DNA of 54,737 bases, filler included, from Nitrospinae bacterium RIFCSPLOWO2_12_FULL_45_22 (GTDB lineage Bacteria > 2-12-FULL-45-22), in NCBI GenBank assembly GCA_001803565.1. It is 4 parts of 4 records of this genome, joined end to end, with 100 filler letters (N's around TTAATTAATTAA, not from the genome) between each part and the next. Parts side by side here need not be neighbours in the genome. Positions count along the whole stretch, not along the records: positions 26,201 to 42,379 come from MHDQ01000318.1; 3 more parts are not named here. One strand, given 5' to 3'. The notes under the pieces are model-generated. The model was not told the origin of the DNA, searched no databases, and saw only the letters and a program-made list of their open reading frames with translations. Shown piece by piece: positions 26,101 through 46,462 of this stretch. Position 1 is the first letter of the stretch. The number at the start of each line of letters is the position of its first letter. Both the position numbers and the translations under genes were made by a program.

Positions 26101-26200
26101 NNNNNNNNNNNNNNNNNNNNNNNNNNNNNNNNNNNNNNNNNNNNTTAATTAATTAANNNNNNNNNNNNNNNNNNNNNNNNNNNNNNNNNNNNNNNNNNNN
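26101..26200. other. Artificial contig linker
   Basis: N-run with TTAATTAATTAA. Confidence 0.98.
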
Positions 26201-26201
26201 C

Positions 26202-27455: not shown

Positions 27456-27532
27456 GCCGACATAATCTTTCCCACGAAGCAGGTAGTAGCCAAAGGATAT
27501 TCTCAAATCTCTCGCAAAGAAAGGGGTTAAAT

Positions 27533-28651: not shown

Positions 28652-28671
28652 ACAGGAAAGGAGGAATAATC

Positions 28672-29739: not shown

Positions 29740-29757
29740 GACACCAATCTTTAGGTT

Positions 29758-30099
29758 CTAATCAGTCTCTATTTCATGGACCAAGAGTTCCATTCCCTGG
29801 GTAAGGTTTACCTCTTTGCTTTGACACTGGGGGCAAGAAAACTGGTAATTCTCAACCAGAAAAATAGCTTGACATTGATTACATTGCCCTTGGATGGGTA
29901 TTTTTTCTATATCAATTCTTGCCCCCTCAGCCAGAGTCCCTCGAGAAACAAAGTCAAAGCAAAAAGAGAGGCTTTTGGAGACAATCCCCCGCATCTCTCC
30001 AGCCTTGATCTTGATACTATTGATGCGGGTGGCCTTATTTTTCCTGGCTTCTTCCTCTACAATCCTCAAAATATTCTGGGCAATGGATAACTCGTGCAT
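29758..30099 (-). CDS. hypA: Nickel metallochaperone HypA
   Basis: MHELSIA, two CxxC. Confidence 0.93.
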   Translation of the reverse strand: MHELSIAQNILRIVEEEARKNKATRINSIKIKAGEMRGIVSKSLSFCFDFVSRGTLAEGARIDIEKIPIQGQCNQCQAIFLVENYQFSCPQCQSKEVNLTQGMELLVHEIETD

Positions 30100-30111
30100 T
30101 TTTTCTATCTC

Positions 30112-30759
30112 TCAGGAGATTAAGTTCCCTCTCAGCCAGTCTAACCATCTAGACAACCCTTCATCTGTCCTGCAGGATAGTTCAATAATTTCCAACTGGG
30201 GATTGATTTGCCGGGCATTCGCTTTAGCCGATTCCATGGAGAAATCGGTATAAGGGAGCAAGTCTATTTTATTAATCAACATGACCGATGATTCTCTGAA
30301 CATTAGGGGGTACTTGAGAGGTTTATCATCCCCTTCGGTAACACTGAGGAGCATGACCTTATGATGTTCTCCCACCTTAAATTCCGCCGGGCATACCAGG
30401 TTGCCGACATTCTCAATAAATAGGAAGTCCAGTTCCTCCAAGGGCAAATCATCTATAACCCCTTTGATCATACTGGCATCCAGATGGCAAACGCTCTTGG
30501 TATTTATCTGGACAATGGGGATCTCCAATTTCTCCATCCTTTCTGCATCCCTGGTGGTCTCTATATCTCCTTCTATGACGCCTATCTTATATTCTTTACC
30601 TAAACTTTTTATGGTCGTCTCTAAAAGGGTGGTTTTACCTGATCCCGGAGCACTCATCAGATTAAGAACGAGTACTCTAGATTTATCAAACAAACTCCTA
30701 TTCTGGAGAGCTATATGGTCATTTGCCTCCAAGATATCCTCTAATACTTTAATTTTCAT
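30112..30759 (-). CDS. hypB: Nickel incorporation GTPase HypB
   Basis: PGSGKT, CHLDA, ENVGNLVCP, EGDDKPLKYP, NKID. Confidence 0.95.
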   Translation of the reverse strand: MKIKVLEDILEANDHIALQNRSLFDKSRVLVLNLMSAPGSGKTTLLETTIKSLGKEYKIGVIEGDIETTRDAERMEKLEIPIVQINTKSVCHLDASMIKGVIDDLPLEELDFLFIENVGNLVCPAEFKVGEHHKVMLLSVTEGDDKPLKYPLMFRESSVMLINKIDLLPYTDFSMESAKANARQINPQLEIIELSCRTDEGLSRWLDWLRGNLIS

Positions 30760-30792
30760 AGCCTTAATCCTTTCTAATATTGCTCAGAAAAT

Positions 30793-30843
30793 CCCCCTCA
30801 CCCTAACCCTCTCCCCTCAGGGGAGAGGGTTAGGGTGAGGGGG
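30793..30843. repeat. Perfect 25-bp inverted repeat with 1-nt spacer
   Basis: CCCCCTCACCCTAACCCTCTCCCCT-c-AGGGGAGAGGGTTAGGGTGAGGGGG, flanked by GAAAAT...TTTTC. Confidence 0.92.
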
Positions 30844-30981
30844 TAGTTTTCATCCTTCGTGGTGCCCCTTGGGGCATGATGGTTTGCTCTGGATTCAGGA
30901 TTATCTAAAAGATTTGGCCAAAAAGTTTAAAATTTCCTTAGTCATACATGCCTGCTGTAGGACTCCCCATCTCCTGATTAA

Positions 30982-31386
30982 TTACTGCCTGCCTGCCCTT
31001 TCCCGGATAAAATCTACTATTTCCTTTACCGGTGTGCGGCTAGAAAAGACCTCCGCTACACCCATGTCTTTCAATCGAGGGACATCTTCTAAAGGAATCG
31101 GCCCTCCTACGATCACCAAAAAGCTTTGCTCCATCCCTCTTTCCCGCAATTGTCCCATTATTTTCTGCATTGCACCAACGTGGGCTCCAGAATAGATACT
31201 TACGCCTATCACATTTACATCTTCCTGGATAGCCGCAGAGACAATTTGGTCCGGAGTTTGATGCAGACCTGTATATATTACCTCCAGGCCCGCTTCACTC
31301 AGCCCCCGCGCTACCACGATGGCGCCCAACTCATGTCCGTCCAGGCCGGGCTTGGCCATCAATACCCTGATCCTATTCCCAGTCAT
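30982..31386 (-). CDS. Cobalamin-binding small subunit of acyl-CoA mutase
   Basis: KPGLDGHELG (DxHxxG), S..SGAH, GG. Confidence 0.92.
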   Translation of the reverse strand: MTGNRIRVLMAKPGLDGHELGAIVVARGLSEAGLEVIYTGLHQTPDQIVSAAIQEDVNVIGVSIYSGAHVGAMQKIMGQLRERGMEQSFLVIVGGPIPLEDVPRLKDMGVAEVFSSRTPVKEIVDFIRERAGRQ

Positions 31387-31402
31387 TTGACCCTCCTATT
31401 GA

Positions 31403-33073
31403 TTAGATTAAAGCCGGGGGCACAAATTCACCAAATACTTCCTTTAAGGTTCTGGTCATTTCGCCGATAGAGACATAGGTTTTGGCTGCATCAATGAGAT
31501 AAGGCATCAAATTCTTTTTTTCTCTGGCGGCATCCTTTAATCTGGTTAGGCATCCTTTTACCTGCTCATGGCTTCTGGAGGCCTTAAGGCTTTTCAGACG
31601 TTCAATATGCTTGTTTATTGCTTCCATATTGGGTTTGTGCATGGTCAGTCTTTCTCTTGGATCTCGTTCGCCCTCTATTTGATATTTATTTCGCCGGACA
31701 ATAACACGTTGGCCATTGGCTATCTCGCGCTCCACCTGGTGATAATACTCGAGGATCTGTCTCTTCATATAGCCCGATTCAATGGCTGCAGCCGCCCCGC
31801 CCTGATTTTCTACCTCCTGTAAAACATTGACTATTTTATGCTCCATCTGGTTAGTAAGCCACTCAATATAAAATGAGCCGCCCAGAGGATCAACCGTTTT
31901 GGTAATATTAGTTTCCTCTGCCAGTATCTGTTGGGTACCTAATGCCAGGCTCTGACTTTTTTGGTCAGGGATAGCAAACACTTCATCAAAACCGGGATGG
32001 GGAGTTGCCTGAGCACCGCCTAATGCTTGAGCGAGACCTGCCAGGGCAGCCCTTACTAGATTTAACTCCGGTTCCTCAAATTGTAACCAGAGGGGGCAGG
32101 CCAGGGCCGTGAATTTTAGGGCCATAGAAGCCGGGTTTTTAGCACCATATCTATCGCGTAGCAATTTTGCCCATAAACGTCTGGCGGCCCTATATTTTGC
32201 TACTTCCTCGAAGATATGGGGTGTGGTAGAAAAGAAAAAGGTAAATTTTGGGGCAATCTCATCTACCTTCAATCCTCTCTCCAAGGCTTCATTCAAGAAA
32301 CATAAGGCATTGGAGAAACTAAAACCTACTTCTTGGGCCATATTGGCGCCGCCCTCACTCATATTCACTCCCTTGATATTGATGGGATAAAATTTAGGTA
32401 ATTGTTTTGCGGCATATTCTATTAAATCAGTCGCGAGGCGCACGCTGTGTCGTAAAGAAAAAACTGTGGTGCTCTTTGATACCGCCGTACTTAATGGGTC
32501 GTTGGAGATAGAGCCGGAGAGTTCTTTTTGGGACACCCCCCTTTTTTCTGCAGCAGCTATGTACATAGCTACTATCAAGGGGGCCAGGGTCTCCATGTTG
32601 GAATAGAAAGGAACTTTTCCTATGGGTAAGTCTTCAAAGAGGATCTCAATATCTTTAGTAGTGCAGATGGGGATGCCTACCCGGCCCACATCATCCTCTG
32701 CCTGGGGATCGTCAGAATCTAATCCCATATGACTGGGTAAGTCATAAACAATACTGAAACTGGGCTGGCCAGCCTTATAAAGAAATTTCCACCTTCTGTT
32801 GGTATCTTCTGGAGTATCAAACCCGGTAAAAACACTATAGCGCCACGGTTTATGCCGCGACATTTCTGGGTAAGGCCCCCGCGTGAAGGGATATTCTCCC
32901 GGAAAGCCGATATCTTTTAAATAATCACTCAAATTAACATCAACTGGGGTATAGATAGCTTTGATCTCTATGTCCAGGTCAGTCTTGATAGGAGAAGAAT
33001 CTTTTAATCCATATTCCTTTTCCCACCTTTCTTGTTCCTGGGTAATCTTTTTTAAATCATTTCCCTCCACCAT
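31403..33073 (-). CDS. Methylmalonyl-CoA-mutase-family large subunit (divergent)
   Basis: PGEYPFTRG, DLPS.MG.DSD, EEVAK.RAARRLW, DPLGGS; ATG at 33073 with RBS. Confidence 0.9.
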   Translation of the reverse strand: MVEGNDLKKITQEQERWEKEYGLKDSSPIKTDLDIEIKAIYTPVDVNLSDYLKDIGFPGEYPFTRGPYPEMSRHKPWRYSVFTGFDTPEDTNRRWKFLYKAGQPSFSIVYDLPSHMGLDSDDPQAEDDVGRVGIPICTTKDIEILFEDLPIGKVPFYSNMETLAPLIVAMYIAAAEKRGVSQKELSGSISNDPLSTAVSKSTTVFSLRHSVRLATDLIEYAAKQLPKFYPINIKGVNMSEGGANMAQEVGFSFSNALCFLNEALERGLKVDEIAPKFTFFFSTTPHIFEEVAKYRAARRLWAKLLRDRYGAKNPASMALKFTALACPLWLQFEEPELNLVRAALAGLAQALGGAQATPHPGFDEVFAIPDQKSQSLALGTQQILAEETNITKTVDPLGGSFYIEWLTNQMEHKIVNVLQEVENQGGAAAAIESGYMKRQILEYYHQVEREIANGQRVIVRRNKYQIEGERDPRERLTMHKPNMEAINKHIERLKSLKASRSHEQVKGCLTRLKDAAREKKNLMPYLIDAAKTYVSIGEMTRTLKEVFGEFVPPALI

Positions 33074-33356
33074 TTTTCCTTTCCTCCTTACTTCCTTCAA
33101 TATGTGTAGCTGGTTAAATCATCTAGACCATTGAGCGAGTTGTATATTCTTTGTAGCATTATACTCTCCTGAAATCCTTATTCCAAGGGGCTTTTTATCT
33201 GAGAGACGTTTCGAGGAAAAACATACAGCAGGGGTAAGGATCCCGCATGATAAAAGAAGGCCAATGAATGCTCATAGAAATCCAGATAAACACGGACCCC
33301 CCTAAATTCGCCAATAAAATCAAATCCCTGGCGAGATTACCCATGTGATTGGTTTA

Positions 33357-34463
33357 TTACTGATGCATAACTTCTTTAATTTGTGTCTGGTGAAGTTCCT
33401 GAAATGTAGCAAAAGGTGGCCTTTTATCCTCCCTTCTTTTTAATTTAGCTGCCCCACTAAGACAGGGGGAAAGGCAAACTCCACAACCGATGCAGACACT
33501 CTGGTCTGCTACAGGATGACCATCTTCCATGGTAATTATCTCCAAAGGGCAAGCATCCACACATAGGCCACACCCTGTGCATTCCTGGTCTTCCGTAATT
33601 CGAAGAAAATATGTATCCATGATAAAATCCCTGGGCACTTTTCTGCTCTTGATGGGATATATATTCCAGCAGCAACAGGGACAACAGTTGCAATTATGAT
33701 GAACATCATCCTGACAATTATCCACAAAATGGATCAGCCCTTCTTCCTCCGTCTTCTTAATAATTTTAACCGCCTCTTCATTGGTAATTTCTCTTCCTAT
33801 ACCCTTCTCTATGACAAACCTCGCCATATCATTGAATTTTAAACAGTTCTCCAAACTGTGATTGCATTCCCTTTTCCCCAATAAGTCTCGCTGCATACGG
33901 CAAGGGCAATGGACAACCGCAATTACCTCTGCTCTCTCGATAATGCCGGTCATTTGTTCGTAAGGAAGAACTCCCTGGAGCGTGTAATCTACGGCTTTTT
34001 CAATAGGTAAATATCTAAAACTTTTGGCGTTCTCCGTTCCGCGGGCCTTATCCAAAGAGTTTGATTCTTTATAATTTTGCGCACATAACTCGGCCATTTT
34101 CTTCGCATATGAAGTATTTTCACCCTTCCAGAAGAAAATCTGAGGGAATCCAAAACCCCATTGAATAAAACCATAACCGGGTTTTCCGGAACCAGTGGTC
34201 TCCTTATAAACAAAGCCTTTTTTAGCCAGACCTTCCAGGGCTTTACCAGCTTTTTCAGGCTCTATACCTGCCCTCCGGGCTATGATATCTATTTCTTCTA
34301 CTTCGAAGGGAGGCAAATTAGGAGGCAATCCTAAGATTACTTCTAATTCGTCCTGAGCAAGGTTATATTTAAGCAATTCTATCATAGCATCAGACCTGCC
34401 ATACCCCAATCCTATATTCTCCAAATGTTCTTTAAGGGCCTCTTCAATATTTCGTTTTTCCAT
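33357..34463 (-). CDS. Poly-Cys 4Fe-4S protein, paralogue of 28672-29739
   Basis: CPCR, CNCCPCCC, two CxxCxxC; ATG at 34463 with AAGGAGG. Confidence 0.8.
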   Translation of the reverse strand: MEKRNIEEALKEHLENIGLGYGRSDAMIELLKYNLAQDELEVILGLPPNLPPFEVEEIDIIARRAGIEPEKAGKALEGLAKKGFVYKETTGSGKPGYGFIQWGFGFPQIFFWKGENTSYAKKMAELCAQNYKESNSLDKARGTENAKSFRYLPIEKAVDYTLQGVLPYEQMTGIIERAEVIAVVHCPCRMQRDLLGKRECNHSLENCLKFNDMARFVIEKGIGREITNEEAVKIIKKTEEEGLIHFVDNCQDDVHHNCNCCPCCCWNIYPIKSRKVPRDFIMDTYFLRITEDQECTGCGLCVDACPLEIITMEDGHPVADQSVCIGCGVCLSPCLSGAAKLKRREDKRPPFATFQELHQTQIKEVMHQ

Positions 34464-34512
34464 TGGTAAAATTCCTCCTTTTGTAAAATGATTCAATCAG
34501 CATAAAGGCCGA

Positions 34513-34541
34513 TTAATATCATCATGATAGTCATTTGTCAA
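34513..34541 (-). promoter_or_regulatory. Candidate sigma70 promoter
   Basis: TTGACA-17 bp-TATTAA on minus strand. Confidence 0.4.
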
Positions 34542-34574
34542 AGATTATTTGGAACTAAGTTTTTGACTTTATAC

Positions 34575-34841
34575 GTAACAGTTTAGCCAAATAAAGTATA
34601 CCAAAGATTTGTCACGGATAGACACGGATTACATAGCTAACCTTTCCCTGCCACTAAGGCTCAAAGACACCAAGGAGCTCAAAGCTTAAAATGCAAAGTG
34701 TAAAATTAAGGTAATTATTCCTCAGCTTTGCACCTTTAGCTTTGCGTTTTACGTTTCCTTAGTGACTTAGTGCCTTGGTGGCCTAATCTGCGTCTCTGTG
34801 TTCATCCGTGGTTAAAATCCTAATTTTGCCTAAACAATTAC
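34575..34841. mobile_element. MITE-like composite palindrome (GTAAC family), multiply nested
   Basis: GTAACAGTTTAGCCAAATAAAGT...GCCTAAACAATTAC; inner CACGGAT..ATCCGTG and GCCACTAAGG..CCTTGGTGGC arms; inner part recurs at 42562-42623. Confidence 0.75.
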
Positions 34842-35070
34842 CTTTATACAGATTTATTTAGCAATAATATCACTGTAAACAAAATAAATTACCTGTGTAA
34901 GCTTAGTTTTCTCTGGTTCCCAGAATCAAATTCCTTTATTATAATTCCGGGAGGATTTTGATAAAGGTAAGGCCCCGGAAATGACAGGAATCTTTTTTTG
35001 TATAGATAAAAGATGGAGCCCGGTTTTCTTGTCGGGCCGACCGTAAGGAGTAGATCTAAGGAGGTGACAG

Positions 35071-35817
35071 GTGGATATAAGGGATCTAAAAGTGAAAATA
35101 CTGGGAATTGTAGCCACGCCTATAAAGAATGGGAATACCCAATTTATTGTAAATGAGGCGTTGCGAATGGCTGAAGCGGAAGGTCCTGTGGAAACAGAGG
35201 TCATCCATCTGGAGGACTATCAGATTGGTTATTGTACTGGCTGTGAGGGCTGTTTGAGAAAGGTGCATAAGGTGCAGCAAGAGGTGGGTTGTGACATAAT
35301 CCCGGTTCCGATAAAGGAATATAACTGCACTATTAAGGATGATATGGAGGTATTGCACCGCAAGCTCTTAGAGTGTGATGGTCTTATTCTGGGTGCCCCA
35401 GTATATATTGCTACCATACCTGCCCAGCTCAAGACATTCCTGGACCGTTGTCGTACATTCGTCCATGACTATCGCCTCAGGGGAAAGGTGGCCCAGGCGC
35501 TAACCGTTGCGTTTTACCGGAATGCCGGTGAAGATACGGCTCTCGCGGCAATGAATATTACTTTGCTCGGCTTAGGCTTCACCATAGTTGGCTATGGAGG
35601 ATCCACGGTATCTACCAGGGAAGGATTAGGCATCCTTGTGAGAGGGAAACGAATCGCAGTCACTGAAGACCAACTGGGTATGATGTTGATAAGGACGGTT
35701 GGCAGCCAGGTAGCCCAATATGCTCTCCGCCTTAAAGCAGGGACCAGGGCGCTTAAGGAGGCAGGTATCGAGCTTCGCGAGAAGGCGATGTATGCTGTTC
35801 CCGGCAGTAAGAAGTAG
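35071..35817 (+). CDS. Flavodoxin-fold iron-sulfur flavoprotein (NAD(P)H:FMN reductase family)
   Basis: TP.KNGNT, CTGCEGC, C.IKDDM, APVY, LKTFLDR; GTG start with AAGGAGG. Confidence 0.85.
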   Translation: MDIRDLKVKILGIVATPIKNGNTQFIVNEALRMAEAEGPVETEVIHLEDYQIGYCTGCEGCLRKVHKVQQEVGCDIIPVPIKEYNCTIKDDMEVLHRKLLECDGLILGAPVYIATIPAQLKTFLDRCRTFVHDYRLRGKVAQALTVAFYRNAGEDTALAAMNITLLGLGFTIVGYGGSTVSTREGLGILVRGKRIAVTEDQLGMMLIRTVGSQVAQYALRLKAGTRALKEAGIELREKAMYAVPGSKK

Positions 35818-36018
35818 CATTTCGGTGCATACCTCCTTATATTGCACTCATTACGCAATGATCATTCAAAACATAATGATGTTGACTCACTGGAGCCATG
35901 AGTGTTTCAGAGGCCATACAGAAAAAAAAGGCTTGACAGAAAATAGGGGGTATGGTAGAGGGAGTTAAAACTTAGAGAAAGGACATCAATGGCAAAAATT
36001 AAAGGGGGGGTGGTTTAG

Positions 36019-38562
36019 ATGGTAAGTCCCAGGAGAGAAGATTTGGAGGCATTAGCTAAACCCGGTAGTATAAGCTTTGCTGACCGAGCGGTAAAGGCAA
36101 AGCCGTATGAATGGGGATTCGGTTCAACACTAAGGGTGGCTAAACTACGAGAGGGTTTATTCTCTAAAGCTGCCGTAATAAGGGATTGGTCAAGCCTGGG
36201 CCGGGGTGTTACTACCTTCAGGAAGGATGTCAAGGTAGACATGGACCGCGCCAGACTCGTCACTAAGTCCTATAAAGAGACGGAGGGGCAACCCTGGCCC
36301 ATCCGGAGGGGAACGGCACTTTATAAACTCTGCGACGAGCTCCCTATCTATATAAAACCCCAGGACCTGATCGTTGGTAACCCCAATAGCGCCCCGGACG
36401 AGGTACGTTGGTATCCGGAGGCCGATGTGAGCTATATGCCCCAGGCAGTTACTGAAGGTGGCTATCAACATATGCTTACAGATGAGGAGAAGCAAGAATT
36501 AATAGGGGATATTTATGAGTATTGGAAGGACAAGACCCTGGAGGCATCAGTGCGGAAGGTCTTACCGGAGGATATCAAAAACTTCTGTGATATTGGTCCT
36601 TACTCGACAGCCGGTTATGCCAATTTCTGGCGCTCGCCTCGGGGTCTGGCTAACCCTGATTGGGAAGGAATATTGCAAGATGGGATTGCTGCCCGGATAA
36701 AGCGTATAGAGAATAATTATGCCCGCCATAAAGCCTGCATGCCAGAGACTATGAACCCAGTCGAGTATATCAAGAGGTGCCATAACTACGAGGCGATGAT
36801 AATTGCCGGGAAAGCTATCCTGCGGTTAGCAGAGCGATATGCAGAATTGGCCGCTGAACTAGCCAAAAAAGAGAAGGATGAGAAGCGGAAGAAGGAGTTG
36901 GAAGAGATTGCTGAGGTCTGCCGTTGGGTGCCAGCTAATCCGCCCAGGACCTTTCGTGAGGCCCTTCAGGCCTATTGGCTAATCGAAGTAGTATTTCGCT
37001 TTCTCGAGGCCCCTAGTAATGGTAGTGGCTGCAGGCTGGACCAGATCTGGTACCCTTATTATAAAAAGGATATTGAGGAGGGCAGTATCTGCCGGGCAGA
37101 GGCCCTGGAACTGATAGAGTGCTGGATGCTGAATGTAGAAGAGACCGGGATGCATTGCGAGGCACCCGATACCTTTACTGTAGGGGCCGGCGGCTCTATC
37201 TTCTATACTGCCAATATTGCTGGTACTGTTGATGGCAAAGATGCCTCCAATGATCTGACCTGCGTTATTATGGAGGCCCTCGCCAATGTCCGTACCTCAC
37301 AGCCACCTATCGCCTTCCGCTATTCCCCTAAGGTTTCACCTGATGTTATGGTACGGGCCATTGACCTTTGTCGTACCGGCACTGGACACCCGGCCTTCTT
37401 CAATGAAGACCTGTTCAGCCGTTACTCATTGCTCCAGGGAAATCCAGCCGAAGATACCGAGAAATTTGCCGTAGCCGGCTGTATGGCCCCCACTATTACA
37501 GGCAAGTCCTTGAATGCCGGGGCCTACGGAGTCGCTGGTATCTATACGCCGATGAAGTCGTTGGAGTTGGCCCTCTGGCAAGGGGTGGACAAGATCAGTG
37601 GGCTTAAAGTAGGGGCTGATACCCCTGACCCCCGGAGCTTTAAGGATGCCCATGACCTGCTCAAGGCCGTTGGTATTCAGCAGGAAACTATGGTTAGACG
37701 CTATGCCCTGTCTCATGATCTGGGATTTACAGTGTTGATCGAGCGATTCCCTATGCCAGCCACCTCGTTCCTATTAGATGATTGTCCAGATATGGGTATA
37801 GATGTAAACGAGATGAGCCGTAAGTATAATAGCTGGCCCTGCCTCGCGGGGGCGGAATTCAGCACCCTGGCCGATTCTCTGGCGGCTGTCCAGAAACTTA
37901 TTTATGAGGATAAGAAGGTTAGTTGGGATGAGTTGCTGGAGGCCCTGGAAGCAAATTGGGAAGGTAGAGAAGAGTTGCGACAGCTCTTCCTGCGGGCCCC
38001 TAAATACGGTAATGATGATGACTATGCCGATAACTGGGCCGTCTTTGCCCGCAAAGAGGTCTTAGCGGCAACGGCCCGGGTCAAGGATGCCTGGGGCAAA
38101 TCCTGGGCATATGACGGAAGTACCGGTATTTCTCCCATGGCCCTTCCCCGGGGGGTGTATGCTACTCCGGATGGACGCCGGGCCAGTGAACCGGGGGCGG
38201 ACTCTAGCCTGGCACCTTGTGCGGGCAGAGATACCAAGGGGCCTACAGCGGTTCTTAACTCCATCAGAAAAATACCTTTTATGATGAATGACTTGTTGAA
38301 CCAGCGGTTCATGCCCATGTTCCTGGAAGGGGATAACCGGGAGCTCTTTTTCCACTATCTCCGACAATGGTACGAGGGGAGGAATTCTTACCATGTCCAG
38401 TTCAATGTGGTTAATAACGAGCTGCTAAAAGAGGCCCAGCTCCATCCCGAGAAACACCAAGACCTGATGGTGAGGGTAGCGGGCTATAGTGCCTATTTTG
38501 TTGACTTGCCAACGGAGGTACAAGACCATGTCATTGCCCGGACAGAACAGACCTTCGCCTAA
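36019..38562 (+). CDS. Glycyl-radical enzyme (PFL2/GRE family), unknown substrate
   Basis: C-terminal HVQFNV and LMVRVAGYS glycyl motif; PKYGNDD; Cys loop GCMAP. Confidence 0.93.
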   Translation: MVSPRREDLEALAKPGSISFADRAVKAKPYEWGFGSTLRVAKLREGLFSKAAVIRDWSSLGRGVTTFRKDVKVDMDRARLVTKSYKETEGQPWPIRRGTALYKLCDELPIYIKPQDLIVGNPNSAPDEVRWYPEADVSYMPQAVTEGGYQHMLTDEEKQELIGDIYEYWKDKTLEASVRKVLPEDIKNFCDIGPYSTAGYANFWRSPRGLANPDWEGILQDGIAARIKRIENNYARHKACMPETMNPVEYIKRCHNYEAMIIAGKAILRLAERYAELAAELAKKEKDEKRKKELEEIAEVCRWVPANPPRTFREALQAYWLIEVVFRFLEAPSNGSGCRLDQIWYPYYKKDIEEGSICRAEALELIECWMLNVEETGMHCEAPDTFTVGAGGSIFYTANIAGTVDGKDASNDLTCVIMEALANVRTSQPPIAFRYSPKVSPDVMVRAIDLCRTGTGHPAFFNEDLFSRYSLLQGNPAEDTEKFAVAGCMAPTITGKSLNAGAYGVAGIYTPMKSLELALWQGVDKISGLKVGADTPDPRSFKDAHDLLKAVGIQQETMVRRYALSHDLGFTVLIERFPMPATSFLLDDCPDMGIDVNEMSRKYNSWPCLAGAEFSTLADSLAAVQKLIYEDKKVSWDELLEALEANWEGREELRQLFLRAPKYGNDDDYADNWAVFARKEVLAATARVKDAWGKSWAYDGSTGISPMALPRGVYATPDGRRASEPGADSSLAPCAGRDTKGPTAVLNSIRKIPFMMNDLLNQRFMPMFLEGDNRELFFHYLRQWYEGRNSYHVQFNVVNNELLKEAQLHPEKHQDLMVRVAGYSAYFVDLPTEVQDHVIARTEQTFA

Positions 38563-38650
38563 AAAGTCAGTACCCGGGGCCAGGGATCGGGGCTCAGATT
38601 TATGATCTTTAAATAATGCTGCTCCCTGCTCCCTGGTTCATAATAAAGAG

Positions 38651-38701
38651 ATGTAGCGTGAAAGCTTGCTTTCATAATGCGAGCAAGCTCGCACGCTACA
38701 T
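38651..38701. repeat. GTAG-type REP doublet
   Basis: ATGTAGCGTG...CACGCTACAT with two inner hairpins; near-identical copy at 54461-54539. Confidence 0.85.
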
Positions 38702-38728
38702 TGCAAATCCCGGTAGAAAATAGCTGAA

Positions 38729-39655
38729 ATGACTGATTATCAACGCAAAGGTTATGTATTCAATATCCAGCGCTTCTCTATCCATGATGGCCCGGGTATA
38801 AGGACTACTGTCTTTCTGAAAGGCTGCCCCTTGAGGTGTAGCTGGTGTGCTAACCCGGAATCACTAAGACTCCTCCCAGAGATTATTACCCGCGATATCA
38901 AATGTATCAAGTGCGGGAAGTGTATCAAGACCTGCCCCCAGTGTGCTATCGCTGCCGAAGACCATGTGCAGAGAACTATCCATTGGGAAAAGTGTGACCA
39001 ATGTCTGCAATGTGCTGAGGCCTGCCCGGCTGGCGCCATAGAGGTAATGGGTAAATACCTTTCCGTAGACGAGGTTATTGAAGAAGTCTTGAGGGATCTC
39101 CATTTCTATACCGACAACAGTGGCGGTATGACCCTGTCCGGTGGTGAGCCGTTGTCCCAATGGCAATTCGCCCTCGATCTACTTAGAGAGGCTAAACAAA
39201 AGGGATTACATACGGTATTGGATACCAGCGGGTATACGGACTGGGAGATATTGGAGAAAATTTTAGAATATACCGATTTAGTGCTCTACGATATTAAGCA
39301 TATGGATGATGAGCTCCATCAGCGAGAAGTAAAGGTCTCTAACCGCCAAATCCTGGCTAATCTGGAGAAGGCCGCTAGCCGGTCAAAGACCAGGATCTGG
39401 GTCCGCTGCCCGGTCATACCGGATTTCAATGATACCGACGAGCATTTCCGGCAGATGGCCAGCTTTATCCTGGGGCTAGGAAAAGCCGTGGATAAAGTAT
39501 CCCTCCTGCCTTACCATCGGTTTGGCGAATTAAAATATAGCGCGGGCGGGAAGAAATATCCTTATGAAGGAAAACCTCAAATACCTGATGAAAAGATAGA
39601 GTACCTGAAACAGCTCCTAGAATCCTATCAGTTAGTAGTCACCCTCAAGAGTTAA
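38729..39655 (+). CDS. Glycyl-radical enzyme activating protein with ferredoxin insert
   Basis: HDGPGIRTTVFLKGCPLRCSWCANPE, two CxxCxxC, SGGEP, LPYH. Confidence 0.95.
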   Translation: MTDYQRKGYVFNIQRFSIHDGPGIRTTVFLKGCPLRCSWCANPESLRLLPEIITRDIKCIKCGKCIKTCPQCAIAAEDHVQRTIHWEKCDQCLQCAEACPAGAIEVMGKYLSVDEVIEEVLRDLHFYTDNSGGMTLSGGEPLSQWQFALDLLREAKQKGLHTVLDTSGYTDWEILEKILEYTDLVLYDIKHMDDELHQREVKVSNRQILANLEKAASRSKTRIWVRCPVIPDFNDTDEHFRQMASFILGLGKAVDKVSLLPYHRFGELKYSAGGKKYPYEGKPQIPDEKIEYLKQLLESYQLVVTLKS

Positions 39656-39694
39656 TGTAGTGGCAGAGCTTGCTCTGCACAGGGAGCCGGACCA

Positions 39695-40804
39695 ATGCCG
39701 TTATTATTAGAGAATAGCCAAACAGTACCAGACCTGTCACCCCAAAATATATTGGACACTACCAGAGAAAAGTTCAAAAAGGTGGTGCAGGAATCTAAAC
39801 CCCTCTTTGCCTGGTTCAGCCTCACAGAGGAATGTGACCTGCGCTGCAAATACTGTTTTGCCGATTCCAGCAAGCCCGTGGAAAGCGAGCTCTCCACGGC
39901 TGAGGCACTCCATATTATAGATAATATTGCCGAGGCCGGCACCCAGGCCATTGTCTTTGGCGGTGGTGAGCCTACCTTAAGAAAAGACCTGTCTGAGATC
40001 GTGCAACATAGCTCTAGATATATGAGCGTCGCTATCAATACGAACGGCCAGGCCCTTGACCGATACTATATAGAGCGGTTAGCCCAGGCTGGTCTATCGC
40101 AGATAAAGATCAGTGTGGATGGCTTGCAAGATACCCATGACTGGAATCGGGGAAAGGGTAGTTTTGAAAAGGCTATAGAAGGGTTAAAGGCCGGTAAGGT
40201 TGCCGGCATCCCCAGGGTAATAATGATTGCTACTGTCTCTCAACGCAACTATAAAGAAGTATCCGGGATGGTAAAACTAGCTATGGAGCTAGGGGTAGAC
40301 TTTTCCGTGGTAGAATTCCTCCCCCTGGGTAGAGGGATGCAGGAAAAGGGCTGGGGCCTCACCCAGGACCAGACCAGGGATTTGCAGCGCTATCTGATGG
40401 AAGCCCGAAGGCTCTATGGGGCAAAACGGATAATCTTTGAAAACCGCTATATCATAACCGAAGATGAGCATGCCCAGAAGATATGTATTGATCCCAATAA
40501 ACCGGTGGATGTATTTGATTTTTGTGTGGGCTGCCCTAACGGAATATACCAGTACTGTATAAACGCCACTGGTAAAGTGACGGCAGGCGATATAACTACC
40601 CTGGAAATAGGGGACCTGAGGAAAGAAAAACTAGGCACCATATGGCGGGATTCCGATGTGCTTAACCTCTTGCGGGATAGAGAGAAGCTGAAAGGTAAAT
40701 GTGGCGATTGCGAATACAAGTATATCTGCGGGGGCTGCCGCAGAAGGGCCTATACTTATACCGGAGACCTTATGGCTGAAGACCCCGGCTGCTGGCGAAA
40801 ATAG
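39695..40804 (+). CDS. Radical SAM/SPASM protein
   Basis: CDLRCKYC, GGGEP, GKCGDC...CGGCR.RAY..DPGCW. Confidence 0.9.
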   Translation: MPLLLENSQTVPDLSPQNILDTTREKFKKVVQESKPLFAWFSLTEECDLRCKYCFADSSKPVESELSTAEALHIIDNIAEAGTQAIVFGGGEPTLRKDLSEIVQHSSRYMSVAINTNGQALDRYYIERLAQAGLSQIKISVDGLQDTHDWNRGKGSFEKAIEGLKAGKVAGIPRVIMIATVSQRNYKEVSGMVKLAMELGVDFSVVEFLPLGRGMQEKGWGLTQDQTRDLQRYLMEARRLYGAKRIIFENRYIITEDEHAQKICIDPNKPVDVFDFCVGCPNGIYQYCINATGKVTAGDITTLEIGDLRKEKLGTIWRDSDVLNLLRDREKLKGKCGDCEYKYICGGCRRRAYTYTGDLMAEDPGCWRK

Positions 40805-41220
40805 AAGGATTGTTGGCGCGAACAACGACGACAGAAATATATACCCAGGTAAGCAGCAAGTCATTAGGCAAGATAAAAAGGCCGTTGGACATTTTAACCC
40901 TGTAATTGCTCAATATCTTGTGGGGAATTAATATCACCGCAGAGACGCGGAGAAGAAATTAAATGGGACACGGATAACACAGATTTAACGGATAGATTCG
41001 CTTCGCTCACTACAGGTTTGCTTAAATTTTTTATCTGTGTTAATCCCAACTATCCGTTATATCCATGTTCTAAATGAATTGACAATATTTAATTAACGCA
41101 GGCTAAAGCCTGCGACTACCCCAAAACCGCATTAATAAAATGAAAATTCCTATGCTATCGAGTTAGGCGACATCCTTTAATAGCTAATAGATAAAGAATA
41201 TAATAAAAGGAGGTAAACTC

Positions 41221-41433
41221 ATGCATGAAAAGGAAATAGAGGTAAAAATACAGAAGCTTCCCGATGATTTGAGGGGAGAGGTTTTAGATTATGTGGACTT
41301 TCTGCTAAGCAAATATCAAAAAAGAGAAACTGTGAGGAAGAAATTCAAGTTCGACTGGGAAGGTGGACTATCAGAGATAAGAGAGAAATTTACTTCTGTT
41401 GTGCTACAACACAAGGCTTTGGAGTGGAGATAA
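41221..41433 (+). CDS. DUF2281-family putative antitoxin
   Basis: LP....EVLDYVDFL..K, F.WEGGL, LQH...WR; AGGAGG RBS. Confidence 0.8.
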   Translation: MHEKEIEVKIQKLPDDLRGEVLDYVDFLLSKYQKRETVRKKFKFDWEGGLSEIREKFTSVVLQHKALEWR

Positions 41434-41471
41434 TGTTTTTAGTGGATACGAATGTAGGAAGTCTATTATGA
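41433..41471 (+). pseudogene. N-terminal stub of a PIN/VapC toxin
   Basis: TAATG coupling, reads MFLVDTNVGSLL*. Confidence 0.6.
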
Positions 41472-42379
41472 ACGAATTGATTGTGCAATATTATCATAGC
41501 AATAATCCTACCTGTCAAGTTGGTTATCGTTCTGAACCTGGCATACAAGAGACAGACAAGTTCCCGTTCACTTTCAGCCTTCCAAAGGAAGATCGGGAGC
41601 TTCTCCAGTGGTATCTTGAAGAGTATCTTACTTATCCCTACGGCGCCTTCCAAGACCGTGCAAAGCGTGCTGAAAAAGTCATTTCTGACCAGGGTGAGAA
41701 ACTATTTGCTGCAATCTTCCGCAATGAGAAGGATAAAAGTCAATCTGCCATCAGGTTCTATGACCGTGCTATGGAAAATCCAGCCGATTGCCACATCATT
41801 ATCCAGGCCGACCACCCCGCTGGCTGGTCCCTGCCATGGGAATTCATGTATGACCCTGCCTATGTATACCTTGTGCAAAAAGTAAGCGGATTTGTGCGGA
41901 GTCATCCTGGAGCTGGCGTTCATCTTAAACCCATACCCACGGATACACCTAAGATCAATATTCTGATGGTTATCTCTCGCCCGGGTGGCGAGGAAGATGT
42001 TCCTTTTCAATCGGTGGCCCGGCCTCTGATGGAGATATTTCGACCACACCGAGATCGCATTCAATGCGATGTTCTGCGTCCGCCAACTTATGAGCAGTTA
42101 CAAAAGGTACTGGCAGACAAACCAAATTTTTATCATATCTTACACTTTGACGGACATGGCGTATTCCCACATCCCGGAAGCATAGACCACCTTACCTTCC
42201 TGTTAGAGCAAGGGTCACCAGGACAACTTGTATTTGAAAAAGCCGGTGGCGGAAGCCGTTTTGTCTCTGGATCAGAACTTGGCAATCTGCTCTCAGGTAA
42301 AGGCATTCCAGTGGTGATGCTGAACGCATGTCAATCTGGTATGACCCACCCTGATATGCTATATCCCTCCATCGGTGGC
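41468..42379 (+). CDS. CHAT-domain (caspase-like) protein, 3'-truncated by contig end
   Basis: LPWE, HILHFDGHG and LNACQS dyad motifs; ATG at 41468. Confidence 0.88.
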
Positions 42380-42479
42380 NNNNNNNNNNNNNNNNNNNNN
42401 NNNNNNNNNNNNNNNNNNNNNNNTTAATTAATTAANNNNNNNNNNNNNNNNNNNNNNNNNNNNNNNNNNNNNNNNNNNN
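42380..42479. other. Artificial contig linker
   Basis: N-run with TTAATTAATTAA. Confidence 0.98.
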
Positions 42480-42654
42480 ATTTCCTGGCCTCTTGGCTTC
42501 CTAATAAAAAAGAAGGCAAAAAATAGGCATAATACGTAACTGTATTTATGAAATGAAGCACTAAGGTAAATTATTCCTCAGCTTTGCATTTTACGCTTTC
42601 TTAATGTCTTCGTGTTTTCGTGACAGAGAAGAGTTGTTCGGGTGAACGCTTACT

Positions 42655-43986
42655 ATGCCAGAAAGGAAACCTACCGTTGTCATTGTAGGACGGCCCAATG
42701 TAGGTAAGTCCACCCTCTATAATCGTATTGTTCACCGCCGTGATGCCATTGTTAATCATACTGCCGGTGTTACCCGGGATAGACAGGAAGCTAAGGCCCA
42801 CTGGCGCGATAAAAGTTTTATCATTGCCGATACCGGTGGTTATGAAACGGTACCGGCAGATGACCTTACTGCCCAGATCCAGCTCCAGCTAAACCAGGCT
42901 ATTAAAAAAGCAGATATAATTATCTTTTTAGGGGATGCTAAAGAGGGATTAACCCTCCTGGATAGTCAGATGGCTTCCCTCCTCAGGAAGGCAGATAAAC
43001 CGATAATATTGGCTATTAATAAGGTTGATGCCCCTCAACACTATAATAGGGTCTATGACTTTTATCCCTTAGGCCTGGGAGACCCTATCCCCATTTCTGC
43101 CGAGCATAATATTGGTGTTTCTGAATTATTAGACCGCGTAGAAAGGTTACTAGCTCCTAATGCTCCCGAGGATGAATCAGAACCCACTATGCGGATAGCC
43201 GTTATTGGGCGGCCTAATGTGGGTAAGTCTTCCCTGATAAACAGGCTATTAGGAGAAGAGAGGGTTATTGTCCATCAAGTACCTGGCACCACTAGAGATG
43301 CTGTAGACACCATCCTGGAAATAAAGGGCAGTAAATATGTTCTTACTGATACAGCCGGGATCAGGAAAAAAGGGAGGGTAAGTGATAAAGTTGACAGGGT
43401 AAGTATGCTGATGGCCTTAAAACGGATAAAGCGCTCCGATATTGGTCTACTTCTCCTAGGTGCCGAGGAAGGGGTTACGGAGCAGGATGCCCGGATAGCC
43501 AGCTATGTACAGGAAGCCGGTCGGGCCATTATCATTGGGGTCAATAAATGTGACCTGATAGAGGATAATGATTATAATAGGGCTTTATTTAACCGGCGGA
43601 TTAGAGAAAAGATGCCTTATCTGGATTATGCCTCGATATTTTTCCTTTCTACTAAAACGGGCCAGGGGTTAAATCGCCTGTTCCCTCTATTAAAACAAGT
43701 ATTCAAAGAGTATAGCAAAGAGCTCCCTACTCCTAAACTAAATGACTTTCTTCAAGAAGCAGTACAAAGGCATACCCCACCCCTGTACCGTCAGAAGCCA
43801 ATAAAGTTTTACTATATAACCCAAATTATGACCCGGCCCCCATCCTTTCTCTGCTTTGTTAATTACCCCCAGGGTATTCAAGCCCCTTATCAACGCTATT
43901 TACAAAACCAATTAAGGGAGGCCCACGGTTTCCGGGGTACTCCCATCAGACTTCTCTTCCGGGCCAGAAAAGGAGATAAAACATAA
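42655..43986 (+). CDS. der: Ribosome biogenesis GTPase Der (EngA)
   Basis: Two GRPNVGKS G-domains plus KH-like C-terminus. Confidence 0.97.
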   Translation: MPERKPTVVIVGRPNVGKSTLYNRIVHRRDAIVNHTAGVTRDRQEAKAHWRDKSFIIADTGGYETVPADDLTAQIQLQLNQAIKKADIIIFLGDAKEGLTLLDSQMASLLRKADKPIILAINKVDAPQHYNRVYDFYPLGLGDPIPISAEHNIGVSELLDRVERLLAPNAPEDESEPTMRIAVIGRPNVGKSSLINRLLGEERVIVHQVPGTTRDAVDTILEIKGSKYVLTDTAGIRKKGRVSDKVDRVSMLMALKRIKRSDIGLLLLGAEEGVTEQDARIASYVQEAGRAIIIGVNKCDLIEDNDYNRALFNRRIREKMPYLDYASIFFLSTKTGQGLNRLFPLLKQVFKEYSKELPTPKLNDFLQEAVQRHTPPLYRQKPIKFYYITQIMTRPPSFLCFVNYPQGIQAPYQRYLQNQLREAHGFRGTPIRLLFRARKGDKT

Positions 43987-44050
43987 GGCATCCTTCATAT
44001 CTGACCAGAAGTAGTTAGTGCCCATCCAGAAATGAAATCGTGGCACTAAT

Positions 44051-44192
44051 TAGTTTCCAATCCAGAAATGAGGAATTTTCCGCAAGGTCAAGGAAATCAA
44101 GGGATTATGCGGAGTCGTTTAGTACGTCGCACAAATAATCCCGCAGATTGACGCAGAGATTGTGGAAAAGGGCCATTTATGGATGGAAACTA
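44051..44192. mobile_element. MITE-like element
   Basis: Terminal IR TAGTTTCCA(A)TCCAGAAATG / CATTTATGGATGGAAACTA; collapsed relative at 44016-44048. Confidence 0.7.
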
Positions 44193-44383
44193 GTTATACT
44201 GGTACGGGAAGGAAATGGAGGATTATTAGAGATAAAATGGATGAGTGGGTGTTATGTCGCCATTTTTAGCAGGGTTTAAACTATCTGTCAATAGCTGTTT
44301 CTGGAGTTTCCCAGGGAGATTCTCCTTGACAACGGGCCATATTTCCATATAAATATTGGCATATTCATCTTAGGGGGCAAAAA

Positions 44384-44830
44384 GTGGATTCAGTGGATAA
44401 AGAGTTATTAAATCAACTCCAGTCAGGATTACCTCTGGTTTCTCACCCCTTTAAGGCCCTGGGAGAGGCCCGGGAGCGGGATGAACAATGGGTCCTGGAG
44501 CGGATAAAGGAATTGCGGAGAGCCAAGATCATAAGACGTTTAGGTGGTATTTTTGATTCCAAGAGCCTGGGTTTTTCCAGCACATTAATTGCCCTCAAAG
44601 CCCCACCAGATAAGATAGATCAGGTAGCCACCATCATTAATGGCTACCCGGGCGTAACGCATAATTACCTGAGGGAACATGAATATAATATCTGGTTTAC
44701 CCTGACTGCCCCTTCACCGGCAGAATTAGAAAAAAACCTACAGGAAATTCTTAGAAAGACTGATGTTCCCGATCATCTTAATTTGCCCACCCAGAGGGTC
44801 TTTAAACTGAATGTAGAATTTTCTCTTTAA
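44384..44830 (+). CDS. ahbA: Siroheme decarboxylase subunit alpha (AsnC/Lrp-like)
   Basis: IIRRLG, PGVTHNYLR, NIWFT. Confidence 0.85.
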   Translation: MDSVDKELLNQLQSGLPLVSHPFKALGEARERDEQWVLERIKELRRAKIIRRLGGIFDSKSLGFSSTLIALKAPPDKIDQVATIINGYPGVTHNYLREHEYNIWFTLTAPSPAELEKNLQEILRKTDVPDHLNLPTQRVFKLNVEFSL

Positions 44831-44842
44831 GGGAAACTATCT

Positions 44843-45307
44843 TTGTTAGACGATCGAGATAAAGCTATTATCCAATGGTTACAAGGAGACCTCCCTTTAA
44901 AGGAGGCCCCTTATAAAGAAATAGCCGATGCCCTGGCCATGACTGAGGAAGAAGTGTTAGGAAGGATTGCCTCTTTTTTAGCCAGGGGTTATTTGCGGCG
45001 CATCGGGGCAGTCCTTTACCATCAGGAAGCTGGCTTTAAGGCCAATGCTATGGGGGTCTGGCAAGTCCCTCCTGATCAGGTAGAAAGGGTAGGGATGATC
45101 ATGTCCTCTTTTACTGAAGTCTCTCATTGCTATGAACGTCCCACCACCCCGCAATGGCCTTACAATCTTTTTACCATGATTCATGGGCGAGACAAGGAGC
45201 AATGCCAGAAAGTGGCGGAGGCTATATCGCATAAGACAGGAATAAAGGAATATCGCCTCTTATTCAGCATAAGGGAGCTAAAAAAGACCAGCATGAGCTA
45301 TTTTTAA
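44843..45307 (+). CDS. ahbB: Siroheme decarboxylase subunit beta
   Basis: ANAMGVW, VSHCYER, WPYNLFTMIHG, ELKKTSM. Confidence 0.88.
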   Translation: MLDDRDKAIIQWLQGDLPLKEAPYKEIADALAMTEEEVLGRIASFLARGYLRRIGAVLYHQEAGFKANAMGVWQVPPDQVERVGMIMSSFTEVSHCYERPTTPQWPYNLFTMIHGRDKEQCQKVAEAISHKTGIKEYRLLFSIRELKKTSMSYF

Positions 45308-45310
45308 TTT

Positions 45311-45453
45311 GGGTGTGGCTATTTTCGGTCAGAAACCAATTAACCCTGTAGTGGCAGAGCCGGGTACCCTTTGGGTGCTACTAGGAATGTCGAGCAAGCT
45401 CGACCACTACAAATTATATTATATAGGAGTTATGACAAAGAATAGCCACACCC
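45311..45453. mobile_element. Nested element: 13-bp perfect terminal IR enclosing a GTAG-REP
   Basis: GGGTGTGGCTATT/AATAGCCACACCC outer; TGTAGTGG...CCACTACA at 45347-45411. Confidence 0.75.
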
Positions 45454-45472
45454 TTTTAATTTCCCTTATCCT

Positions 45473-46462
45473 ATGCTTAGTGATTCTTTTGAGCGCCAAA
45501 TAGACTATTTAAGGATATCTATCACGGATCGGTGTAATTACCGTTGCCTATACTGTATGCCGGCCAATGGTATAGAACCAAAACCCCGACACCAGTTGCT
45601 GAGCTACGAAGAGACCCTTACGATTGTGGAACTCTTTGTTAAGCTGGGCTTATCTCGCTTCCGGATAACCGGTGGAGAGCCCTTAATTAGGAAAGGCCTG
45701 GTAGAACTGATAGGGGCTATAAGCCAGATAAAAGGGGTAGCAGACCTGGCCCTTACTACTAACGGAACCTTGCTGGCCAGGTACGCCCGGGCTTTAAAAG
45801 GGGCTGGGCTGAAAAGGATAAACATCAGCCTTGACTCGCTTAACCCACAAAAATATTATGAGATTACCCGGGGCGGTAATATTCATGAAGTACTGGCGGG
45901 TATAGACGCTGCGCTGGATCTTGGGTTCTCCCCAATAAAACTAAATACCGTGGTTATCAGGGGAATAAATGATGATGAGCTGATAGATTTTGTACGTTTT
46001 GCCTCGGCTAAGCCCCTGGAGATCCGATTTATAGAATTTATGCCTCTGGGAAAAGAGGGTATCTGGAGCCCAGAAAAATTTATCCCGGGAAAAGAGATCA
46101 GAGCCAGGATAACCAGGGAAATTCCTATAAATCCCATCACCGACACCAGAATAAAAGGTGGTGGCCCGGCAGAGTATTACCAGATTAAAGGCTCCCCAGG
46201 AACTATTGGCTTTATTACTTCTTTGACAGAGAATATATGCCAACGCTGCAACCGGGTCCGTTTAACGGCAGATGGATATTTACGCACCTGCCTCCTGGCC
46301 GACAGAGAGTATGATGTGAAGGCCCTTATAAGGGAGGGAGCTTCTGAAGAGGAAATATTGAGCTTTATCAGAGATGCTATAAGGCAAAAGCCCCAGGGAC
46401 GTTGCTTTAACCTGGATCAACCGCAAATATCACGCAGCCCTATGTCTGCTATTGGTGGCTAA
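45473..46462 (+). CDS. moaA: GTP 3',8-cyclase MoaA
   Basis: YLRISITDRCNYRCLYCM, C..CNRVRLTADG, C-terminal IGG. Confidence 0.96.
   Translation: MLSDSFERQIDYLRISITDRCNYRCLYCMPANGIEPKPRHQLLSYEETLTIVELFVKLGLSRFRITGGEPLIRKGLVELIGAISQIKGVADLALTTNGTLLARYARALKGAGLKRINISLDSLNPQKYYEITRGGNIHEVLAGIDAALDLGFSPIKLNTVVIRGINDDELIDFVRFASAKPLEIRFIEFMPLGKEGIWSPEKFIPGKEIRARITREIPINPITDTRIKGGGPAEYYQIKGSPGTIGFITSLTENICQRCNRVRLTADGYLRTCLLADREYDVKALIREGASEEEILSFIRDAIRQKPQGRCFNLDQPQISRSPMSAIGG

Follow-up and report, generated by a model that had tools for sequence, protein, structure and literature searches.

A glycyl radical enzyme of an uncharacterised clade, encoded beside a SPASM-domain radical SAM enzyme in a Nitrospinae bacterium

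Glycyl radical enzymes (GREs) are the main route by which anaerobes carry out chemically hard reactions without oxygen, and the formate lyases among them (PFL, TdcE) carry an adjacent Cys-Cys pair. The present work concerns a GRE and the genes around it in Nitrospinae bacterium RIFCSPLOWO2_12_FULL_45_22 (assembly GCA_001803565.1), found within a joined stretch of 54,737 nt which was analysed as a whole (the window) and along which all coordinates count. In the parts of a 2026 GRE review that deal with the division of these enzymes (PMC13450708), seven classes are recognised and whole clades are still unassigned. The eliminases and isomerases are defined there by a C-x-E motif on the Cys loop, HPAD and IAD are described with an essential Glu at Cys+2, PAD with Gln484 (Cys+2) and Trp495 (Cys+13), and the GRE decarboxylases are said to have no single active-site architecture in common. 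For the X-succinate synthases (XSS), the pertinent parts of another paper (PMC12358834) attribute fumarate binding to an oxyanion hole of the Cys loop and to an Arg at Cys+15 (Arg508 in BSS, Arg492 in MASS).

The block in question comprises four open reading frames (ORFs) on the + strand over 35071–40804, with intergenic gaps of 201, 166 and 39 nt. It is considered likely that this block represents a complete, probably functional GRE system of an orphan family, with a genuine partner in the SPASM-domain radical S-adenosylmethionine (SAM) enzyme encoded by its last gene. The features are:

35071..35817, + strand, Fe-S flavoprotein of 248 aa (FMN_red PF03358, 90.5 bits vs a cut-off of 24)
36019..38562, + strand, GRE of 847 aa (Pfam PFL-like PF02901, 490 bits; Gly_radical PF01228, 87.1 bits)
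37471..37530, + strand, Cys loop VAGCMAPTITGKSLNAGAYG (GCMAP) of the GRE, with the catalytic Cys488 codon at 37480–37482
38473..38490, + strand, glycyl radical motif RVAGYS of the GRE, with the Gly822 codon at 38482–38484
38729..39655, + strand, GRE activase, a radical SAM protein of 308 aa (TIGR02494, 360.4 bits vs a cut-off of 174.35)
39695..40804, + strand, SPASM-domain radical SAM enzyme of 369 aa (PF04055, 98.7 bits; PF13186, 22.8 bits vs a cut-off of 21.5)

The GRE has the canonical fold, and its radical residue Gly822, its thiyl residue Cys488 and its activase are intact. The marks of the superfamily are all present, namely the RVxG[FWY] fingerprint, a mid-protein Cys, the barrel fold and an adjacent radical SAM activase, and an AF2 model of the protein was obtained with a pLDDT of 92.9 and a pTM of 0.93. 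The activase, encoded 166 nt downstream of the GRE gene, contains the motif C33-x3-C37-x2-C40 together with two ferredoxin-type Cys motifs (Fer4 families) in residues 55–105, and was the sole close activase homologue found in the assembled (85%-complete) genome. The SPASM enzyme has the radical SAM cysteines C47/C51/C54 and the full set of auxiliary-cluster cysteines, and the flavoprotein has an Isf-like Cys motif (C55-x2-C58-x2-C61 plus C74). Among the ORFs of at least 30 aa listed over 34497–41400, no Cys-rich small ORF was found in the intergenic gaps. A preliminary description of this DNA had reported the RVAGYS motif, the Cys loop with a Tyr at Cys+15 and no Glu, the upstream Fe-S flavoprotein, an activase with a ferredoxin insert, a SPASM radical SAM gene and the lack of small beta and gamma subunit ORFs; the domain matches and motifs given above bear out each of these observations, the residue at Cys+15 being Tyr503 and that at Cys+2 an Ala.

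The GRE scored below every NCBIfam cut-off. Its highest scores were obtained with the HpsG (452 bits, cut-off 1000) and HypD (433 bits, cut-off 1100) models, followed by CutC (416 bits, cut-off 1050), IAD (361 bits, cut-off 1100), HPAD (276 bits, cut-off 1150) and PFL (TIGR01255; 63.8 bits, cut-off 994), and a score of 451.4 bits was found against TIGR01774 (PFL2/glycerol dehydratase subfamily, PFL2-3), for which the cut-off is 678.2. Matches to the solved structures of CutC, BSS alpha, glycerol dehydratase, IseG and MasD all lay at 360–383 bits, with the AAD structure 7e7l at 330 bits, and the likeness of these scores indicates that none of the solved relatives is close. Identity to the BssA, MasD-like, HypD, CutC and glycerol dehydratase references was 29–33%. 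A Foldseek search with the model placed BSS alpha (4pkf_A; E 1.1e-53, TMq 0.88) marginally first, with TM scores of 0.83–0.88 to all solved GRE classes, which are nearly equal and do not discriminate among them. An HMMER scan of 1.84 billion representatives returned only three above 640 bits, the next being at 41% identity; the GRE family is compact and discrete.

A tree of 146 GREs (FastTree, LG+gamma; unrooted in effect) placed the query GRE and 120 homologues, referred to here as the family, in one monophyletic clade of 121 sequences (support 0.999) with no solved or named member. The query lies in a subclade of four (support 1.0), and the XSS formed a clade of their own (14 sequences, support 1.0). 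The nearest outgroup of the family was an uncharacterised clade that includes the three other GREs of the host genome. Two rows of the alignment, L007b and xL025, were left out as non-GREs (17.7% identity, no Gly motif), and the tree was computed from the rows that remained. The BssA reference was taken from a bssD-linked locus (1553.7 bits to TutD) and a second BssA-like sequence was added; the BssD equivalog search behind these references gave no match in six genomes of the GTDB family of genome G002 and two near-cut-off matches at class level. The MasD-like reference scored 1429.4 bits to 9o8u and the glycerol dehydratase reference 1802.5 bits to 1r8w, and the HypD and CutC references were annotated proteins from plasmid records. 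PhdB, IadA and HpdB stood outside the tree and were compared through the NCBIfam IAD and HPAD models or through motifs quoted in the review. The preliminary description had called for placement in a GRE phylogeny, and the query clusters with none of the characterised GREs brought in. Its proposal of an uncharacterised GRE thus holds as regards a separate clade without the defining residues of each known class, while the idea of a class with new chemistry remains a guess, as does its suggestion of a decarboxylase or of C-C chemistry. The three other GREs of the host (G000:C15:2735-5155, C176:444-2846 and C8:4393-6834; loci L027–L029) are 38–41% identical to the query, carry a C-M-R-W Cys loop and all score below the NCBIfam cut-offs.

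Active-site residues were mapped by alignment only. The Cys488 position is a Cys in all 121 family members, and the radical position is Gly in 119 and Ala in two. At Cys+2, where the query has Ala, no member of the 121 has Glu. The query has G-C rather than a Cys-Cys pair (a Cys stands at −1 in 35/121), Cys+8 is Lys or Arg in 110/121 (Lys496 in the query) and Cys+13 is Gly in the query. In the column of XSS Arg508 the query shows a gap, as do 119 of the other 120 members, and the one left over has a Tyr; 11 of the 14 XSS rows have Arg there, and the other three, all MasD-like, were shifted by the aligner, yet have Arg at +15 by count. Arg208 of the query stands in the column of the toluene-contacting Tyr197 of BSS, and Arg is found there in 85/121. 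Several further pocket positions hold small residues (Gly389, Ala610, Gly703), the Gln707/Glu690 position (BSS Gln707) is Ser, and BSS Trp613 is kept as Trp606. The Cys loops of the family were observed to be very diverse (e.g. GCVANN, CCVNPH, GCVAMNC). The eliminases and isomerases (glycerol dehydratase, CutC, HypD, HpsG, IslA, HplG, YbiW, PflD) share with the query the fold, the Gly and Cys loops and a ferredoxin-insert activase, and include the two best-scoring NCBIfam models, yet these scores lie below half of their cut-offs; the query also differs in the lack of C-x-E and in its identity of 29–31%.

The two family members with Ala at the radical position, P0008 and P0009, form the sister pair of the query subclade (support 0.99), are 54% and 52% identical to the query and carry RVAAY in place of the Gly motif. 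Their Cys loops are odd, and JGI or Logan are the only sources of both. Aminoacyl radical enzymes are marked by an Ala, Ser or Thr where a GRE has its radical Gly. A description of alanyl radical enzymes appeared in 2024 (Fu et al., PMC11528403), and in the parts of that paper that concern their placement they have no known function and stand beside the eliminases. P0008 and P0009 share the Ala with them, whereas the query itself keeps Gly822. In a search with P0008, the nearest of the matches listed were P0009 and the query subclade, and for this reason the pair may be alanyl radical enzymes of an origin separate from that of the published ones. Another variation was seen in family GREs that are 50–53% identical to the query and are split into two genes about 35–40 residues past the Cys loop (L009:2038-4659, L010:3403-6004, L013:3485-5486). 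The spacer contains stops, a GGAGG resembling a ribosome-binding site and a new ATG, so that the half with the Cys and the half with the Gly would be made as two polypeptides. An N-terminal GRE half of 522 aa occurs as a representative of its own (P0266), and many Desulfobacteria GRE matches carry one internal stop.

The best NCBIfam match of the SPASM enzyme was AhbD (205 bits, cut-off 500), followed by NirJ2 (198 bits) and AhbC (154 bits), with equivalog cut-offs of 500 to 650, and its nearest solved structures are remote (SkfB 90 bits, BlsE 71 bits, PqqE 61 bits). It shares with AhbD, NirJ and AhbC the radical SAM core and a SPASM domain with full auxiliary-cluster cysteines, and differs in its scores below the cut-offs and in that the AhbA/AhbB genes of the window (siroheme decarboxylase genes) lie on another contig. 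These genes, together with Der and MoaA genes (42655–46462), are not neighbours of the GRE block; AhbA/AhbB were therefore rejected as context of the SPASM gene and, being beyond a contig break, cannot serve to read it as a haem-synthesis enzyme. The main evidence that this gene belongs to the GRE system is the recurrence of SPASM, GRE and activase genes across phyla. In L001, the locus of a close relative in a phylum-mate genome (GRE 79% identical), a SPASM orthologue (75% identical) follows the activase, and in L010 a SPASM gene comes after a GRE of the family and the corresponding activase. Few Desulfobacteria have the SPASM family (4/401 genomes searched). In four of the five loci examined there, the distance from a SPASM homologue to a GRE activase is at most about 6 kb; a GRE is detectable in two of the five, and a protein of 175–187 aa without assignment is often present. 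SPASM homologues near GRE or activase genes were found in L010, L076, L078, L079 and L080. The SPASM gene thus stands as a recurrent partner, and no paper on the GRE–SPASM pairing or on this GRE family was found in the (mostly non-subscription) literature searched.

Conservation of the four-gene order, which the preliminary description had put forward as a check, was not borne out. The order in L001 is GRE, an inserted Uma2-family gene, activase (68% identical), SPASM orthologue and a second SPASM paralogue (49%), followed by a 513-aa AAA+ protein and a VWA protein (L098:59-3142, which continues L001), and synteny is otherwise lost on both outer sides. In this one relative examined, the 7 kb that precede the GRE contained no flavoprotein homologue. 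In the DNA run X3, a contig at depth 5.55 joins position 35301 to 35621 and thereby deletes 319 nt of the flavoprotein gene, which is not a multiple of three. The absence in L001 and the deletion variant together indicate that the conserved core consists of three genes, GRE, activase and SPASM. The flavoprotein is an accessory gene that is not conserved with the GRE.

Other genes travel with the family. A pair encoding an AAA+ protein (about 510 aa) and a VWA protein (about 370 aa) recurs with distant members (L003:4594-7258, L010:14-2705, L012:5938-8602, L014:7466-10243), and the AAA+ proteins are 57–63% identical across loci whose GREs are about 48–53% identical to the query. For the AAA+ protein of L001, weak, chelatase-like matches to models of ChlI, BchD and cobaltochelatase lay at 39–48 bits. 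A BssE-like identity was considered for the family AAA+ protein and rejected, as BssE and BssF have no blastp similarity to the family AAA+ and VWA proteins. Further family loci have genes that recall pathways for the activation of hydrocarbons or acids: in L011 the GRE and activase are followed by a B12 mutase, MeaB and a CoA ligase, a CoA ligase, a hydratase, a thiolase and DUF35 are found in L006, and NMO-like genes in L004, L012 and L019. Fourteen loci fetched as possible family members proved to be of the ASS/MasD-like kind, with about 31% identity to the query, and were used only as a context control; within the 13–20 kb fetched, a B12-mutase-like gene was present in 6/14 and an NMO-like gene in 7/14. 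Such ASS/MasD-like loci (L082, L083, L085, L086, L091, L093, from Desulfobacteria) often have two activase genes. A protein family of 174–187 aa with no Pfam or NCBIfam match was also seen to accompany GRE activases and SPASM enzymes of the P0004 type (L003:3623-4147, L009:5775-6329, L010:7523-8086, L076:5020-5496, L077:2116-2607, L078:184-663, and L080:8156-8644 and 15605-16075); no homologue of it was found in the genome of the window.

The window consists of several joined contigs, with N linkers around a TTAATTAATTAA spacer at approximately 26140–26200 and at 42380–42480, and the four-gene block lies wholly within one contig of 16,179 bases (MHDQ01000318.1, window 26201–42379). The host assembly comprises 321 contigs and is 85% complete, and its phylum is represented by one other genome in the collection searched. 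The left side of the contig holds two double-cubane/2-hydroxyacyl-CoA-dehydratase-like genes, two paralogous Fe-S proteins, HypA/HypB and a split methylmalonyl-CoA-mutase-type pair, the last being 3 kb upstream of the block on the opposite strand. The double-cubane pair and the Fe-S proteins occupy 26373–29739 and 33357–34496; the latter are 31% identical to each other and combine an N-terminal region without assignment with a two-cluster ferredoxin domain at the C-terminus, and one of them stands upstream of the flavoprotein gene in divergent orientation. In L095, a family GRE is followed by a similar Fe-S gene. On the right side, a small ORF is followed by a CHAT-domain gene truncated by the contig end. 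The block is flanked by two dispersed repeats, which belong to two unrelated families with no real mutual similarity:

34646..34795 (also given as 34637–34873), no strand assigned, dispersed intergenic repeat of the left flank, with a depth spike in metagenome contigs and 59 blastn matches in the genome for 34600–34900
41091..41158 (also given as 41036–41272), no strand assigned, dispersed repeat of the right flank, with a depth spike and 45 blastn matches in the genome for 41000–41300

No Rfam match was obtained across the contig at gathering thresholds, and a scan for promoters and terminators gave 14 and 9 sites, respectively, against 10.6 and 6.7 in shuffles, an uninformative difference.

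With regard to the working of the system, the activase, by means of SAM and its reduced [4Fe-4S] cluster, would remove a hydrogen from Gly822, the radical would move from Gly822 to Cys488, and the resulting thiyl radical would attack the substrate. Arg208 and the small pocket residues point to a substrate that may be a fairly bulky, anionic and probably carboxylated compound. The lack of a Glu at Cys+2, of a second Cys and of an Arg at Cys+15 suggests that it falls outside the range of the known classes, being probably neither an alcohol or amine handled through a Cys+2 Glu nor a fumarate held by a +15 Arg. The SPASM enzyme would most likely share the pathway of the GRE and act on its substrate or product, or else it would have a role in maturing the GRE. 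The first of these, with a carboxylated substrate, is preferred, since the SPASM enzyme is placed in the branch of AhbC, AhbD and NirJ, and these named enzymes closest to it cleave or decarboxylate side chains of the carboxyalkyl type. The flavoprotein may supply electrons to both radical SAM enzymes and would be dispensable.

A number of points weigh against this account of a functional system with a SPASM partner. Every step of the mechanism after Cys488 is one that we infer, no characterised homologue exceeds about 33% identity, and Arg208 is not invariant (85/121), its placement in the pocket depending on the alignment to BSS. Most of the family GRE loci examined are without a SPASM gene, and a second SPASM paralogue of the host (46% identical) lies on another contig in an unrelated context, beside the cell-wall genes AnmK and SLT, which shows that the SPASM family is not always linked to a GRE. 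The AAA+/VWA pair was not found in the host genome (85% complete), so the system of the host may be incomplete. Among sequencing runs recorded as RNA, none contained the GRE gene. Exact pieces of this gene (37129–37491 and 37708–37862) were observed in two runs of one sample, labelled metatranscriptomic, which were flagged as probably DNA, and these were not counted as evidence.

The XSS (BssA/TutD, MasD/AssA) resemble the query in several respects. A divergent, XSS-like hydroalkylase would couple an unreactive C-H substrate with an unsaturated acid and work without beta and gamma subunits, the co-substrate being bound by the oxyanion hole of the Cys loop and by Lys496 or Arg208 in place of the +15 Arg. 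The fold, a size near 850 aa, an N-terminal part that can be aligned with ASS-like genes from around residue 39, the kept Trp606, the top Foldseek match to 4pkf_A and a C-M-A-P loop resembling the C-M-S-P of the XSS are all consistent with such an enzyme, as are the mutase, CoA-ligase and beta-oxidation genes of some family loci (the pathway genes of L011, L006, L004, L012 and L019 are also known from ASS-like loci) and the methylmalonyl-CoA-mutase-type pair upstream of the block. Nevertheless, this reading is judged unlikely. The query is 31–33% identical to the XSS. The family lies outside the XSS clade, with another uncharacterised clade as its nearest outgroup, and the fumarate Arg of BSS and MASS, as described in the relevant parts of PMC12358834, has no counterpart in it. 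The toluene pocket is partly replaced by Arg (for Tyr197) and small residues, with Ser for Gln707/Glu690, and the Foldseek scores favour no class. Beta, gamma and delta subunits are lacking, with no small subunits in the gaps, unlike the BssA reference locus, where small ORFs flank the alpha gene, and BssE and BssF do not resemble the AAA+/VWA pair.

The Arg in the predicted pocket would suit a radical decarboxylase working in the manner of PAD and IAD (hydrogen abstraction) or of HPAD (Kolbe-type), in which Arg208 would hold the carboxylate and a second decarboxylation or dealkylation of the same scaffold would be the task of the SPASM enzyme. The nearest named relatives of the SPASM enzyme (AhbD, NirJ2, AhbC) do act on acetate and propionate side chains, the query has no elimination or formate-lyase motif, and according to PMC13450708 no single active-site architecture is shared by the GRE decarboxylases. 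The bit scores of 361 against a cut-off of 1100 for IAD and 276 against 1150 for HPAD, and the Ala at +2 and Gly at +13 where HPAD and IAD have the Cys+2 Glu and PAD, compared by motif only, has Gln484 and Trp495, make a decarboxylase of either kind distinctly improbable. A further explanation is that the adjacency of the SPASM gene is incidental, a housekeeping or cofactor-biosynthesis gene happening to lie downstream of a functional unit of GRE and activase only. The second paralogue among cell-wall genes agrees with this, as does a tblastn survey in which, outside the query genome and G001, L010 was the only family GRE locus with a homologue of the SPASM protein (P0004), and the SPASM family is widespread in lineages of unchecked context. 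Little credence is given to it in view of the 75% orthologue in the same position in L001, where outer synteny is lost, the 39-nt same-strand gap between activase and SPASM genes, and the SPASM genes near activases in four of five loci of a different phylum. The closest JGI homologues of the SPASM enzyme (81%) and of the GRE (89%) are each reported on a longest contig of 122,957 bases, which is suggestive only. It should also be noted that the probabilities attached to these alternatives partly overlap with that attached to the general statement of a functional orphan-family system.

Beyond that general statement, an eighth functional class of GREs is put forward only tentatively. Its members would perform none of elimination, isomerisation, formate lysis, arylacetate decarboxylation and fumarate addition, and its machinery would consist of the GRE, the activase, one or two AhbD/NirJ-like SPASM enzymes and the chelatase-like AAA+/VWA pair. 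In the boldest version, the system would remodel or degrade a large carboxylated macrocycle, e.g. a tetrapyrrole, under anoxia, as the nearest named relatives of the three accessory types are found in tetrapyrrole metabolism, and the Gly to Ala swap of the sister lineage would be independent of the published alanyl radical enzymes.

The orphan GRE clade is real, and as uncharacterised GRE clades are to be expected its existence is not astonishing. It is set apart by the absence of every class signature, by a conserved and unusual set of accessory genes and by the Ala-bearing sister pair. To our knowledge, each GRE clade newly assigned so far has led to a new pathway, and the organisms with the present family live in groundwater and sediment and belong to a phylum that has hardly been sampled. 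Its value is that of a clear and testable candidate, with a function predicted only from sequence comparison and context, and the Ala-bearing pair and the naturally split relatives provide handles on the change of the radical-storage residue and on half-barrel assembly.

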